This document shows, in pieces, positions 4,005-11,900 of a stretch of 17,104 nt of DNA (position 1 is the stretch's first letter; the number at the start of each line of letters is the position of its first letter). This DNA is from a virus (taxonomy: Duplodnaviria > Heunggongvirae > Uroviricota > Caudoviricetes). The notes beneath the pieces are model-generated. The model worked only from the letters and a program-made list of their open reading frames with translations, did not search any database and was not told the origin of the DNA. The stretch lies in IMG/VR virus record IMGVR_UViG_2534681701_000012. One strand, given 5' to 3'. The translations under genes and the position numbers were made by a program.

Positions 4005-4193
4005 TTATCCAGCCGGTGTTTCGTTATTCAGGTACAGCGATACTTTTTTTAGCGGGAGGCATTCACCAGAAATTTTTTGCTCGTCTCTTGCCTGGAGGCA
4101 GGATTCTTTACTTGCATAAATTCCGGTAATCACATTCTGTGATTCACCCGTTATAAGAAAAACCGTCATCATCAGTGCAAATGCTGAAGTCAT
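4005..4193 (-). CDS. ydfD: YdfD-like small protein with hydrophobic N-terminus
   Basis: 62-aa ORF whose ATG overlaps the dicB stop (ATGA). N-terminal MTSAFALMMTVFLITGE is signal/TM-like. Position directly after dicB matches ydfD of the Qin prophage. Confidence 0.6.
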   Translation of the reverse strand: MTSAFALMMTVFLITGESQNVITGIYASKESCLQARDEQKISGECLPLKKVSLYLNNETPAG

Positions 4194-4378
4194 TGACGTT
4201 CTCCGAAAATACCAAGTTCAAGAAGAGCAATTCGGGAAAGTATGGAATTATCATTGAGCAGATAAGGCTCATATTTCCTCATATTAATGGCATCTTCAGT
4301 AAACTCCCGGTTACTGAGCAGAACACCAATATCAAAACAACCTTCAGACGTATTAACGTTTGGTAATAACGTTTCCAT
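4190..4378 (-). CDS. dicB: DicB-like cell-division inhibitor
   Basis: 62-aa ORF; N-terminus METLLPNVNTSEGCFDIGV...FTEDAIN closely matches my recollection of E. coli DicB (MKTLLPNVNTSEGCFEIGV...FTEDAIN). Lies downstream of the DicF-like element, as in the Qin dicB operon. Confidence 0.8.
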   Translation of the reverse strand: METLLPNVNTSEGCFDIGVLLSNREFTEDAINMRKYEPYLLNDNSILSRIALLELGIFGERQ

Positions 4379-4556
4379 TATCGCGTCCTCAACAATGAAT
4401 TTTGTGATGCAGTGCCTGGTGCCTCCAGGTGACGTTAACCAGTTAACAATTAACGCCGGATTAGTTGATGCTCGTTACGCCCGTAAAATACCGCCTTACT
4501 GCTTTAACTGTTCCGCGTGCGCATAGCCGCATTCACCGCATCACAAAATTCACTTT

Positions 4557-4596
4557 AAAAAGGGCGGATATCCGTTTCCGCCGAATCACCAGAAAA
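4557..4596 (-). ncRNA. dicF: DicF-like small RNA (short variant) ending in an intrinsic terminator
   Basis: Minus strand reads UUUCUGGUGAUUCGGCGGAAACGGAUAUCCGCCCUUUUU. The 5' UUUCUGGUGA and 3' CCGCCCUUUUU match the ends of K-12 DicF as I recall it. 6-bp stem GGCGGA/UCCGCC with an 8-nt loop plus U-run. The following sequence toward dicB also looks like the K-12 dicF-dicB spacer. Ends approximate. Confidence 0.6.
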
Positions 4597-4897
4597 GTGA
4601 TAACAGAGGGCGTTGCTGCGGGGTTGTCACTTAAGCGTATGGTCAACCTGACAACCCGGTGTCCTCAGCGGGGAAGGAATAACCCCGCCATACTTACCGC
4701 CGCGCCATTTCGCGGATTGCCACAACCGGAAGCGCACGGTCGAATTAAATTTAACGACTACCTACAGAGAGACGAACTTCGCCGTGCGCTTTCGCGTTAT
4801 GCCCTGACTTTTCAGGGATATATCCTTTTCAGTAAACTGTCAGTGCCGGATTCTTATCCGTGTCCGGCGCACGCACTCTACCTCACCTGTGAATAAA

Positions 4898-5272
4898 TTA
4901 ATGATTAATTGATATTTTGTTGTTTGATTCAACTTTCCCATCGGATGTGTGATGCTTTAAATCACAGGAATTAATACTGCTTGCTGTAAAATGATTTTCA
5001 AGGGGAGCTATTCGAATCCCTTTCTTTTTCATTAACAAGCCAAATCCTTTATTAAGGATGTCCATTAATTCCAGGAAGTATTTTTCATGTAAATCCTGGT
5101 TATCAGAGAGCTGATTCTCTTCGCACAGACCGATAAAGGCACGACGCACGTTACCGGATATAGTATCGATGGTTTCTTTTTCTACGGTACTCAGGTCAAG
5201 AGTCGCCGGTTGGGAACGAACTATATTCGCTGCCATTTCCTGGAATTGCATTGGTAAATCTTTAAATTCCAT
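4898..5272 (-). CDS. Hypothetical protein inserted between ydfC-like and dicF-like
   Basis: 124-aa ORF with GAGG Shine-Dalgarno 7 nt upstream of the ATG, starting 22 nt after the ydfC-like stop. The 3' third is AT-rich (about 4900-5060). No recognisable motif. Confidence 0.6.
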   Translation of the reverse strand: MEFKDLPMQFQEMAANIVRSQPATLDLSTVEKETIDTISGNVRRAFIGLCEENQLSDNQDLHEKYFLELMDILNKGFGLLMKKKGIRIAPLENHFTASSINSCDLKHHTSDGKVESNNKISINH

Positions 5273-5294
5273 TATTAGCCTCGTTGGTTAGCTA

Positions 5295-5513
5295 TTAACG
5301 CGGGTATGTAATCATTCTGGCAATGCTTAATGCCGCTGCTTTTTCCAGATTAGTGATATCCTGCTCCAGAGCGGACAGATTTTCAGCCTGCTTAGCCCTG
5401 GCTTCATTGGCCCATTTCAGATCCTGCGCTGCATTAATTTTCTGGTGCATCCACTCATAAAGTTCATCATCGGTATAGTCTGGCGCGATGATGACGGGTT
5501 CTCGTTTCTGCAT
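5295..5513 (-). CDS. ydfC: YdfC-like small protein
   Basis: 72-aa ORF third in the leftward operon; size and position match ydfC of the Qin dicB operon. Predicted coiled-coil-like sequence. Confidence 0.65.
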   Translation of the reverse strand: MQKREPVIIAPDYTDDELYEWMHQKINAAQDLKWANEARAKQAENLSALEQDITNLEKAAALSIARMITYPR

Positions 5514-5542
5514 ACTGATTCCTCGCGGTGCTGTTTCGCTTA

Positions 5543-5671
5543 TCAGCCGTTAGATTTTGCCGAACTGGAAAGCGCCTGTTTAAATTCGTTGAAGCTGAGA
5601 GCTTCTTCGCCTTCGGCAAGACCTTCGAAGTATTCTTCGTAAGCCTTTTCCATGATTGTGTCGAAATCCAT
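5543..5671 (-). CDS. ydfB: YdfB-like 42-aa protein
   Basis: Hand translation gives MDFDTIMEKAYEEYFEGLAEGEEALSFNEFKQALSSSAKSNG; it is below the ORF-track size cut-off. ATG lies 1 nt after the ydfA-like stop. Length and sequence match my recollection of YdfB. Confidence 0.6.
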   Translation of the reverse strand: MDFDTIMEKAYEEYFEGLAEGEEALSFNEFKQALSSSAKSNG

Positions 5672-5672
5672 A

Positions 5673-5828
5673 TCACTCACCTGAGTTTCTTTCCAGCCAG
5701 CGACGGGCACCATTTTCGGTTTTAAACGTTTTGCTTTTGGTATACGTCATCGCGGTGAATGTGCCCTCCTGGTTGGGAAACACGCCGTACACCAGAGATT
5801 CGTTGTTGCCAAGCTCGATAGTATCCAT
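5673..5828 (-). CDS. ydfA: YdfA-like 51-aa protein
   Basis: Hand translation gives MDTIELGNNESLVYGVFPNQEGTFTAMTYTKSKTFKTENGARRWLERNSGE; below the ORF-track cut-off. First gene of the leftward operon after the repressor, as in Qin. Confidence 0.65.
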   Translation of the reverse strand: MDTIELGNNESLVYGVFPNQEGTFTAMTYTKSKTFKTENGARRWLERNSGE

Positions 5829-6024
5829 GCTGACCTCATTTCCCCTTAACGCCGGGTGGCGGAACTAAAACCTACAGCGCCGTGCTGTTCTTGATAGAGA
5901 TATTAGTAACGCGGATATTTTAAGTCAACAGTATGGCGTATGATATTTTTGATTTGGTAACTATGTAAATGTTTTTTCAAGGGAAAAATATTAGTTATAC
6001 AGCTGATTTGCAGAAGTTATGGCA

Positions 6025-6057
6025 CAAAAAAACCGACTAAGACGTCGGTTTTTTTGT
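6025..6057. terminator. Bidirectional intrinsic terminator downstream of the repressor gene
   Basis: AAAAAAACCGAC-taagac-GTCGGTTTTTTT: 7-bp GC-containing stem flanked by an A-run and a T-run, 25 nt beyond the repressor stop. Confidence 0.55.
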
Positions 6058-6081
6058 TGTGGATGGGGTAGTGAGCGGTGG

Positions 6082-6543
6082 CTACTGGTTACGTTTCTTT
6101 AGTGCCAGCATGTTCTCGAAGGCTTCCTCGTAGAGCTTGTTTAGTCCACGTAGCTGGTTAAGGAGTTTGGCTTTTTCTGACGCAGGTAGAATCTCGAAGA
6201 GGTTAAGTAACTCTGCCTGTTCTTCATTGACCAGCCTCCATCCTTTGCCTGAAAAGTTATCATCATAAGTATCTGATGATCTTACATAATTCATTAAGTC
6301 TTTAAGGTCTTCTCGAATGTCCTCTGGTTTTACCTTTAACAGAGCCGCAAATTTTAGCGCAGCGTCGGTATTTACCGGTATCTTGCCGTTCAGATACTGG
6401 CTAACGGTGCCTTGAGATTCGAATCCCAACAACTCAGCCGCCAGCTCTTGAGTCAGCTTCAGCTCTTTTTTTCTTGCATTCCATGCGGCTTTTAAATTCT
6501 TGCTCGCTTCTGGAGTTGCAATCACTTCGCGTGTTTTTTTCAT
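6082..6543 (-). CDS. CI/DicA/RacR-like HTH repressor (XRE family)
   Basis: 153-aa ORF with HTH LTQELAAELLGFESQGTVSQYLNG, transcribed divergently from a Cro-like gene across a 100-bp AT-rich intergenic region. Confidence 0.85.
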   Translation of the reverse strand: MKKTREVIATPEASKNLKAAWNARKKELKLTQELAAELLGFESQGTVSQYLNGKIPVNTDAALKFAALLKVKPEDIREDLKDLMNYVRSSDTYDDNFSGKGWRLVNEEQAELLNLFEILPASEKAKLLNQLRGLNKLYEEAFENMLALKKRNQ

Positions 6544-6644
6544 ACATAGAGTTTATTTGTTTTACCAATATTATCAAAGATAGTCTGGCTATTGATCTTT
6601 AAAATTAGCGGGGCTAATATTTGCTCGAGGCATAACGTAGAAGG
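6544..6644. promoter_or_regulatory. Divergent promoter/operator region of the immunity switch
   Basis: AT-rich 101-bp spacer between divergent repressor and Cro-like genes. Contains TATCAAAGATAG and CTATTGATCTTTAAAATTAG, related to TTGATAGAGATAT at 5891-5903. Operator assignment is inferential. Confidence 0.45.
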
Positions 6645-6926
6645 TTGGCTATGAACTTAAGAGACTATTTAAAAGAGAAACATATCACCCAGCTACAGTT
6701 TGGGAAGCTAACGGGTTTATCTCAGGTGCATGTAAGTCGAGTGCTGGGGGGCTATGAAAGATTCAGCCCTGAAAAAGCATTACGTGTTGCTGAAGTAACG
6801 AATTTCGAGGTTACACCTCATGAACTCCGGCCTGATATTTACCCGAATCCAACCGACGGCTTACCTGTTGGATTCAAGGCTAACACACCAAATGCATCGG
6901 AGTTGATTCATGAAAATCAGGCATGA
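6645..6926 (+). CDS. ydaS: Cro/YdaS-like HTH protein
   Basis: 93-aa ORF with HTH LQFGKLTGLSQVHVSRVLGG, first gene of the rightward operon, overlapping the next gene start. Resembles Rac YdaS. Confidence 0.75.
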   Translation: MAMNLRDYLKEKHITQLQFGKLTGLSQVHVSRVLGGYERFSPEKALRVAEVTNFEVTPHELRPDIYPNPTDGLPVGFKANTPNASELIHENQA

Positions 6927-7335
6927 GCACATCCGCATGGCGATGAATGCCTGGGCGCATCCGGACGGTGAAAAAGTTCCGGCAGCTGAAATAACCCGGG
7001 CTTATTTTGAGCTTGGTATGACGTTCCCGGAATTATATGACGACAGCCATCCGGAAGCCCTGGCTCGCAATACCCAGAAAATTTTCCGCTGGGTGGAGAA
7101 AGACACTCCTGATGCGGTTAAAAAAATTCAGGCGTTGTTACCAGCGATCGAAAAAGCAATGCCGCCTCTGCTGGTGGCCCGAATGCGCAGCCACAGTTCA
7201 GCTTATTTTCGGGAGCTGGTGGAGACGCGGGAACGACTGGTGAGAGACGCTGATGATTTTGTCGCAGTGGCGATCGCTGGTTTCAACCAGATGAATCGTG
7301 GTGGCCCGGCGGGAAATATTGTGGTTGTGCATTGA
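6910..7335 (+). CDS. ydaT: YdaT-like protein (CII-position regulator/toxin family of Rac-type prophages)
   Basis: 141-aa ORF; GGAG Shine-Dalgarno 7 nt upstream. Sequence MKIRHEHIRMAMNAWAHPDGEKVPAAEITRAYFELGMTFPELYDD matches my recollection of Rac YdaT. Confidence 0.75.
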   Translation: MKIRHEHIRMAMNAWAHPDGEKVPAAEITRAYFELGMTFPELYDDSHPEALARNTQKIFRWVEKDTPDAVKKIQALLPAIEKAMPPLLVARMRSHSSAYFRELVETRERLVRDADDFVAVAIAGFNQMNRGGPAGNIVVVH

Positions 7336-11485: not shown

Positions 11486-11744
11486 ATACAGCGAACGCTA
11501 TTGGTTTAGTTGGATATTTACTGTGCCGGACAAAAACGGTTTGCAGGGAAATCTTAGTTAAGTAGAATGACTGTGGGTGCTTGAGGCTATCTGTCTCAGG
11601 CATGAACACCAAAAGGCAGATAGAGAAAAGCCCCAGTTAACATTACGCGTCCGGCAAGACGCTTAACATTAATCTGAGGCCATATCTATGCTCTACACAC
11701 GTAGGTTAGCCTCTTACGTGCCGAAAGGCAAGGAGAAGCAGGCT

Positions 11745-11900
11745 ATGAAGCAGCAAAAGGCGATGCTAATCGCCCTGATCGTCATCTGTTTAACCGTCAT
11801 AGTGACGGCACTGGTAACGAGGAAAGACCTCTGCGAGGTACGAATCCGAACCGGCCAGACGGAGGTCGCTGTCTTCACAGCTTACGAACCTGAGGAGTAA
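11745..11900 (+). CDS. hok: Hok/Gef-family membrane toxin (HokD/RelF-like)
   Basis: 51-aa product MKQQKAMLIALIVICLTVIVTALVTRKDLCEVRIRTGQTEVAVFTAYEPEE has the Hok signature (TM helix, RK..LCE.R, EV..F.AYE). AGGAG Shine-Dalgarno 9 nt upstream. Confidence 0.85.
   Translation: MKQQKAMLIALIVICLTVIVTALVTRKDLCEVRIRTGQTEVAVFTAYEPEE

Follow-up and report, generated by a model that had tools for sequence, protein, structure and literature searches.

Genes and inheritance of the immunity region

The DNA analysed here is a stretch of 17,104 nucleotides from a virus of the Caudoviricetes (IMG/VR record IMGVR_UViG_2534681701_000012; hereafter the window), which represents a lambdoid prophage 99% identical to prophages of E. 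coli ABU 83972, 042, VR50 and others. We studied its immunity region, in which a repressor gene lies between a leftward operon containing dicB and two rightward regulatory genes. A sequence-only reading of the same DNA had proposed a Rac-type immunity switch with operators on both sides of the repressor gene, and had flagged three TTGATA/TATCAA-type motifs as candidate half-sites, TTGATAGAGATAT at 5891-5903 (motif 1), TATCAAAGATAG at 6572-6583 (motif 2) and CTATTGATCTTT at 6589-6600 (motif 3), together with a terminator hairpin at 6025-6057. All four elements lie where that reading had put them, and its gene layout, from the repressor and cro genes through ydfA to dicB, was borne out. The genes of the region are as follows.

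6082..6543, minus strand: repressor gene, 153 amino acids, with a CI-like helix-turn-helix (HTH) N-terminal domain and a short helical C-terminal domain
6651..6926, plus strand: cro-like gene of the YdaS family, 91 amino acids (Pfam, PHROG, PGAP)
6910..7335, plus strand: cII-like gene of the YdaT family, 141 amino acids (Pfam, PHROG, PDB)
4005..5828, minus strand: leftward operon ydfA-ydfB-ydfC-open reading frame-dicB-ydfD (Pfam DUF1391, DicB and DUF1482; PGAP annotation of the 99%-identical ABU 83972 prophage), with ydfA at 5673-5828, ydfC at 5295-5513, an open reading frame of 124 amino acids at 4898-5272, dicB at 4190-4378 and ydfD at 4005-4193

The repressor matches Pfam HTH_3 (1e-9), and its residues 12-78 align to the N-terminal domain of lambda CI with E values of 3e-4 to 1e-3. 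Its last 42 amino acids are 38% identical to DicA (E 8e-6), the alignment being confined to those 42 residues. The C-terminal part is helical by structure prediction, and AlphaFold was confident only at residues ~11-90, the HTH domain. The protein is 99.3% identical to the product of a gene annotated 'dicA' in phage Rac-SA53, while BLASTP detected no similarity to K-12 RacR (E 26) and a PDB search returned no PaaR2 chain among its matches. Pfam found no Peptidase_S24 domain at E values up to 0.01 in this protein of only 153 amino acids, and from the missing S24 match we infer that it does not cleave itself.

The cro-like protein barely exceeds the Pfam cutoff for YdaS_toxin (30.9 bits, cutoff 30), also matches HTH_3 and PHROG 35 (2e-25), and is named 'YdaS family' by PGAP. 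The cII-like protein matches Pfam YdaT_toxin (1e-9) and PHROG 163, 'CII-like transcriptional activator' (3e-45), and its PDB matches include the nearly identical 3c4r (1e-90) and 8bt1, the YdaT protein of CP-933P (1e-79). The repressor and cro genes diverge from each other across 107 bp, a distance that is 106-107 bp in all homologous loci collected. These identities and this layout, in which the repressor and cro genes diverge, speak for a lambdoid immunity switch.

The way the region is inherited points in the same direction. Of 5426 complete E. coli genomes, 180 have inherited positions 5860-6660 as a single block and 4255 have the flanks, which is the behaviour expected of an immunity cassette carrying both sets of operators. 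The block is also present in phage Rac-SA53.

In Rac-SA53 (locus L004) the same cassette, running from the leader of the leftward promoter pL through the N-terminus of cro, sits on other flanks, with kilR, racC and recET to the left and a different ydaT to the right. Its left junction coincides with the ribosome-binding site of the first pL gene.

Predicted promoters flanking the repressor gene

To define the promoters of the region, we compared the window with ten loci whose repressors are 58-99% identical to that of the window, drawn from Rac-SA53, E. albertii, Enterobacter, Salmonella, Hafnia, Serratia and metagenomes. Three promoters are proposed.

PR, the cro promoter, plus strand: -35 TTGATC at 6592-6597, 17-nt spacer, -10 TAATAT at 6615-6620; predicted start near 6627
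PRM, the repressor promoter, minus strand: -35 TTGATA at 6577..6572, 16-nt spacer, -10 TAAACT at 6555..6550; promoter scan match
pL, the promoter of the ydfA-dicB operon, minus strand: -35 TTGACT at 5928..5923, 17-nt spacer, -10 TAATAT at 5905..5900; promoter scan match, predicted start near 5893

PR matches the promoter consensus at 8 of 12 positions and fell below the calls of the consensus scan. Its hexamers stand at a fixed distance from the repressor ATG across the homologous loci. The -35 box reads TTGATC in 9 of the 10 loci by our count (the exceptions named are TTGATT in L018 and CTTTTC in L010), the -10 box reads TAATAT in 9 of 10 (TAATTG in L010), and the spacer is 17 nt, or 16 in one locus. 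The PR promoter of Rac carries the same -10 box.

All homologs have a -10-like hexamer for PRM (TAAACT, TAAAAT or TAGAAT) 6-7 nt from the repressor ATG. In the window the ATG lies 7 nt past the -10 box, which implies a leaderless mRNA, with a predicted start at 6543. The lambda cI mRNA is leaderless as well. For paaR2, the analogous gene of CP-933P, a leaderless PRM transcript has been demonstrated by experiment (PMC8630535).

The hexamers of pL recur at the aligned positions upstream of ydfA in the Qin prophage of K-12 (dicBp) and upstream of ydaG in Rac, and pL is kept in the homologs. Promoter-like matches as a whole were near the number expected by chance (4 against 1.9 +/- 1.6). A second pL-like match, TTTACA-18-TATCAT at 5969..5940, was rejected, both of its hexamers being altered in Rac-SA53.

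The transcript from pL would begin with a leader of about 65 nt (5829..5893, minus strand), which holds a small hairpin ACAGC-ACGGC-GCTGT (5888..5874), the sequence GTTCCGCCACCCGGCGTTAAGGGG and the ydfA ribosome-binding site. This leader is common to the window, K-12 Qin, K-12 Rac and a majority of the distant relatives, including cases in which another gene comes first downstream. The hairpin was no more stable than shuffled sequence.

Candidate repressor operators inside the promoter spacers

Comparison of the promoter regions revealed 15-mers of the form ATTnGY-N3-RCnAAT, that is, half-sites of 6 bp separated by 3 bp. We consider it likely that the locus works as a lambdoid immunity switch on the pattern of Rac, Qin and CP-933P, in which the repressor binds these 15-bp sites and the hexamers flagged earlier are not its recognition sequence. 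The candidate right (OR) and left (OL) operators are listed below.

OR1, 6604..6618: ATTAGCGGGGCTAAT; exact consensus match, 6 of 7 pairs symmetric, in the PR spacer with a 4-nt overlap with the -10 box
OR2, 6579..6593: GATAGTCTGGCTATT; weaker palindrome with core TAGT-N5-GCTA
OR3, 6555..6569: ATTTGTTTTACCAAT; exact consensus match, filling the PRM spacer
OL1, 5902..5916: ATTAGTAACGCGGAT on the plus strand, ATCCGCGTTACTAAT on the pL strand; one mismatch to the consensus, in the pL spacer with a 4-nt overlap with the -10 box
OL2, 5927..5941: AACAGTATGGCGTAT on the plus strand, ATACGCCATACTGTT on the pL strand; 2-nt overlap with the pL -35 box, tentative

These positions support the general layout of the sequence-only reading, with candidate operators at PR/PRM and at pL, on both sides of the repressor gene. 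Exactly two matches to the consensus, OR1 and OR3, occur in the 17 kb, where 0.12 are expected, and both fall inside the 107-bp intergenic region. OL1 occupies in pL the position equivalent to that of OR1 in PR. The centre of OR2 lies 24 bp from that of OR3 and 25 bp from that of OR1, which places it at about -43 relative to the start of PRM and about -41 relative to that of PR; similarly, OL2 lies 25 bp from OL1.

Support for these sites comes from covariation between the two promoter regions. When the 11 spacer bases outside the -10 box of PR were compared with those of the pL of the same genome, the summed identities over nine non-redundant loci were 71, against a mean of 51.8 when the genomes were permuted (P about 1e-4). 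In the same permutation scheme, the 13 nt upstream of the -35 box also covaried between PR and pL (61 against 37.9, P<5e-5), and OR3 covaried with OL1 (P 0.0017). Correspondingly, in the Hafnia relative, the Serratia relative and the metagenomic relatives, PR and pL have 13-17 nt in common that differ from genome to genome. Examples are given here.

Hafnia relative: PRM ATGAATAAAACTAAT, PR ATGAATATAAGTAAT, pL ATGAATATAAATAAT
L016: PR ATACGCGGAGCTAAT, pL ATACGCAGAGCTAAT
Serratia relative: PR ATTAGCAATGATAAT, pL ATTAGCATTGCTATT

As the Hafnia relative illustrates, the OR3 position in homologs holds each genome's own operator type, and the pL-strand half-site of OL2 matches the genome's own half-site type in every relative. 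The pattern of natural variation is also consistent with these assignments. Among 9 close variants, all substitutions in OR1 and OL1 fall at n, Y, R or central positions of the consensus, OR1 varying only at positions 4 and 6-9 and OL1 only at positions 4, 9, 10 and 12. OL2 varies at positions 3, 6, 7 and 10, and OR3 is invariant in the E. coli variants. Nine E. coli or E. albertii variants retain the arms of OR2, as does the Enterobacter relative, whose site reads GATAGTTTGACTATT.

Several observations weigh against this assignment. The consensus was derived after the fact, partly from sequences that were also used to judge conservation, and with one mismatch allowed it is not enriched in the window (5 sites, 3.0 expected). 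OR1 and OL1 of the window agree at 6 of 11 non-promoter positions, the lowest value in the family, and one half-site of OL1 is poor (ATCCGC). Since the right halves of OR1 and OL1 overlap the conserved -10 boxes, their conservation is confounded by promoter function. The covariation of OR3 with OR1 was not significant (P 0.06). OR2 and OL2 are weaker still: OR2 scores 1.6 bits on a matrix made from O1 and O3, OL2 also scores poorly, and the two agree at only 9 of 15 positions, with one of them reversed. We therefore assign OR2 only tentatively.

The 15-mers emerged only by comparison with relatives. A generic repeat finder run on 5829-6660 passed over them and reported the terminator described below plus a weak 13-nt inverted repeat (6569-6581/6595-6607). 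Two further candidates were left unassigned. A fourth site at 5990-6004, ATTAGTTATACAGCT, scores 10.1 bits, within the range of shuffled sequence (mean maximum 11.7), and only one of its half-sites persists in the Enterobacter relative; a possible OL3 near 5951-5966 reads TTAGT-N-ACTAA in several variants, which has the wrong spacing. Far from the immunity region, the 15-mer ATTCGGGTCGCTAAT at 2412-2426 in the exonuclease gene has one mismatch to the operator consensus and scores 13.1 bits, also within the shuffled range, and is probably a chance match.

A terminator behind the repressor gene and a possible plus-strand RNA

Between the repressor gene and pL lies an intrinsic terminator.

6024..6057: perfect 14-bp inverted repeat (6024-6037/6044-6057) with A7 upstream and T7 downstream

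It begins 25 bp past the repressor stop codon, with no open reading frame before pL. The RNA folds at -19.7 kcal/mol on the minus strand (z -7.3) and at -19.5 kcal/mol on the plus strand. A terminator scan gave no call for the hairpin, which folding confirmed; we believe that the scan missed it because the A and T tracts extend the stem and leave no free T-run. Every homologous locus has its own, different GC-rich hairpin followed by a T-run just past the repressor stop codon, in agreement with the proposal that the terminator isolates the repressor transcript from the promoter of the ydfA-dicB operon. The same proposal had called the terminator bidirectional. This holds for the sequence of the window, but the upstream A-tract was not found in the more distant relatives examined (L018 and beyond), so that the two-way form is not conserved and only termination of the repressor transcript is supported.

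A two-way terminator would be explained if a transcript also arrived from the other side. TTGATA at 5891-5896, within motif 1, could be the -35 box of a plus-strand promoter, TTGATA-17-GATATT, giving a small RNA of about 130 nt that ends at the plus-strand face of the terminator. The promoter scan reported this match (9 of 12 positions), and the plus-strand hairpin with its T7 folds as given above. Moreover, none of 9 variants has a change within 5966-6057, in contrast to the substitution hotspot at 5930-5965; a strain with a 1-nt deletion still has a legal 16-nt spacer; an Enterobacter relative lacks both the TTGATA and the A-tract; and models of small RNAs, including STnc370 and IS128, match 5984-6060 (plus strand) below threshold. 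However, the yield of the promoter scan was near chance, as stated above, the sub-threshold Rfam matches involve many unrelated families and are driven by the terminator, and the joint loss of TTGATA and A-tract rests on a single lineage. We thus regard this promoter as unlikely, and it is quite unlikely that the region encodes a previously undescribed small RNA at ~5925-6057, made inside OL and crossing OL2 and the pL -35 box toward the repressor gene. If such an RNA were made, it could add a layer of RNA-based or transcription interference to the control of the toxic dicB operon.

The flagged hexamers coincide with predicted promoter elements

The sequence-only reading held that the repressor recognises the TTGATA/TATCAA half-sites of motifs 1 to 3. 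The motifs exist and overlap promoters, where a bound protein would repress, and the arms of the conserved central palindrome fall within motifs 2 and 3. Nevertheless, what the three motifs have in common is a hexamer one base off the sigma-70 -35 consensus TTGACA, motif 3 having TTGATC rather than TTGATA. TATCAA at 6572-6577 is the -35 box of PRM and TTGATC at 6592-6597 is that of PR; motif 2 consists of the PRM -35 box plus five more bases, and motif 3 of three bases, the PR -35 box and three more bases. Motif 1 overlaps the pL -10 box by four bases and spans the predicted start near 5893, with TTGATAG (5891-5897) at the pL start site. The hexamers are common, TTGATA occurring 9 times and TATCAA 8 times (17 in total) in the 17.1 kb, so the repetition of the motifs is at chance level. 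When up to 3 mismatches are allowed, the full 13-mer of motif 1 has 5 sites in the window where 3.6 are expected, and the other two motifs are not among them.

Conservation likewise separates the hexamers from the operators. Nine of 10 relatives have TTGATC irrespective of the operator type that they carry; such constancy would be expected for a -35 box and is the behaviour of a promoter, not of a specificity determinant. Motif 1 is not conserved in related immunity regions: in E. coli variants it reads TTGATAGAAATAT, TTGATATAAATAT or, with the 1-nt deletion, TTGATAG-AATAT, and it is absent from the Enterobacter relative (repressor 92% identical to that of the window), the sequence there being TTGCT-GAAATAT. 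In the same relative the TATCAA of motif 2 is changed to AATCGA. The sequence-only reading had itself named a lack of conservation of the repeats in related immunity regions as grounds for refutation, and by that measure its TTGATA-type half-sites fail as sites of the repressor. Recognition of these hexamers by the repressor is thus very unlikely. Part of the earlier observation survives in another form: GATAG and CTATT, on the inner sides of motifs 2 and 3, form the arms of the conserved palindrome OR2, whereas the hexamers beside them are -35 boxes.

That the TTGAT/ATCAA motifs are instead half-sites of YdaT, which would act directly at OR and pL, appears highly improbable: the YdaT of the window is very close to the CP-933P protein and the hexamers resemble its half-site (PMC9986795), but TTGATTN6AATCAA with up to 2 mismatches was found in the region only at 6903-6920, none of the three motifs has a partner at N6 spacing, and the pair at OR is everted (ATCAA-N14-TTGAT). 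The one site that was found is listed here.

6903..6920: candidate YdaT (CII-like) operator, TTGATTCATGAAAATCAG, with one mismatch to TTGATTN6AATCAA, at the ydaS/ydaT junction

TTGATTN6AATCAA is the site footprinted for the YdaT of CP-933P, at the same place in the gene order (PMC9986795), and 6903-6920 is probably a YdaT operator.

A model of the switch

Binding of the repressor to the 15-bp sites, the reading that we prefer, suggests how the locus may work. The repressor would be transcribed leftward from PRM, and the YdaS-type cro and YdaT-type cII genes rightward from PR. Occupancy of OR1, in the PR spacer and -10 box, would turn off cro and cII, and occupancy of OL1, in the equivalent part of pL, would turn off the dicB operon. 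At high repressor levels, OR3 may be filled as well and, lying in the PRM spacer, would provide negative autoregulation. The weaker OR2 and OL2, which lie 24-25 bp from the stronger sites and border the -35 boxes on their upstream side, are probably filled cooperatively; with its centre at about -43 from the PRM start, OR2 could in addition stimulate PRM in the manner of lambda OR2. Cro is a probable competitor for these sites. The terminator directly past the repressor gene would stop the repressor transcript before it reaches pL. For a repressor that is predicted not to cleave itself, inactivation probably occurs through an antirepressor.

This layout is already published for Qin, Rac and CP-933P, and the locus reveals no new kind of mechanism.

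Comparison with Rac, Qin, CP-933P and lambda

The label 'Rac-type' given to the locus by the sequence-only reading proved partly right. Footprinted RacR operators have the form (T/A)TAGGC-n3-GCCTA(T/A) (PMC9638921). In K-12, where the operators can be made out by eye, O1 of Rac sits in the PR spacer and overlaps the -10 box, OL1 sits in the pL spacer, and OL2 reaches the -35 box from a position 25 bp farther upstream. The window resembles Rac in its divergent repressor/cro pair with YdaS and YdaT genes, in the PR -10 box TAATAT and in the conserved pL leader. The candidate operators have the same geometry, with 15-bp sites of the 6-N3-6 type, O1 overlapping the PR -10 box, and OL1 and OL2 25 bp apart. 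Unlike in Rac, however, the repressor is unrelated to RacR, the RacR operator sequence finds no match in the window when up to 2 mismatches are allowed, and the Qin-like ydfABC-dicB-ydfD stands in place of ydaG-ydaF-kilR as the left operon.

The Qin repressor DicA shuts off dicCp and dicBp by way of operators located on either side (PMC10448788; see also PMC3441716). The window has the Qin set of leftward genes (ydfA, ydfB, ydfC, dicB and ydfD) together with the position and leader of their promoter, its candidate operators similarly flank the repressor gene, and its repressor is short, predicted to be non-cleavable and DicA-like in its C-terminal 42 amino acids (38% identity). On the other hand, the N-terminal domain and the operator differ, the Qin operator being read as TTAGY-N4-RCTAA; cro is of the YdaS type, not DicC; a YdaT gene is present; and Rfam found no DicF. 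Furthermore, the gap between the repressor gene and ydfA is 253 bp and contains the terminator, against 166 bp in Qin.

CP-933P has a 97-bp spacer, a leaderless PRM transcript, operators at PR, PRM and PL, a repressor without an S24 domain, and YdaT as the CII equivalent (PMC8630535, PMC9986795). The window is similar in its short intergenic region (107 bp), in the -10 elements that PR and PL have in common, in its leaderless repressor mRNA (experimental there, predicted here), in candidate operators overlapping PR, PRM and PL, in a very similar YdaT with its probable operator at the ydaS/ydaT junction, and in a repressor without an S24 domain. In addition, the published half-site GTTTAGTAA is resembled by ATTAGTAA in OL1. 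The two loci differ in what follows the repressor gene, a terminator in the window and the paaA2-parE2 toxin-antitoxin genes in CP-933P, and in the operators, four 18-bp palindromes there and three candidate 15-bp sites here.

The resemblance to lambda extends to the CI-homologous N-terminal domain, the predicted leaderless repressor mRNA, and the placement of pL and PR on either side of the repressor gene, as well as to a putative tripartite OR with centres 24-25 bp apart and OR2 centred near -42 of PRM. In contrast to lambda, Pfam found no S24 self-cleavage domain and there are no rexAB or N genes, and the candidate operators are 15 bp rather than 17 bp long and are sited inside promoter spacers.

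By these sequence relationships the locus is a mosaic, in which a repressor with a CI-like N-terminus, a DicA-like C-terminus and a specificity of its own stands between a right arm of the Rac/CP-933P type and a left arm of the Qin type. It would add a fourth specificity to the Rac/Qin/CP-933P group of short, non-cleavable repressors. Among complete E. coli genomes about 3% have this immunity type, with ABU 83972, 042 and VR50 as well-studied examples; phage Rac-SA53 has it too, and it controls the operon of the cell-division inhibitor dicB. The map of promoters and candidate operators offers testable targets for superinfection immunity, prophage induction and dicB control.

RNA matches elsewhere in the window

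Despite the presence of dicB, Rfam gave no match to the DicF RNA between ydfC and dicB (4346-4897), whereas K-12 Qin gives a clear DicF match. Part of this interval, 4346-4564 (minus strand), matches STnc100 below threshold (31 bits, cutoff 47; E 2e-4). At 11575-11750 (plus strand), a sok antisense RNA was found with 117 bits, beside a hokD-type toxin gene (annotation of the ABU 83972 prophage).

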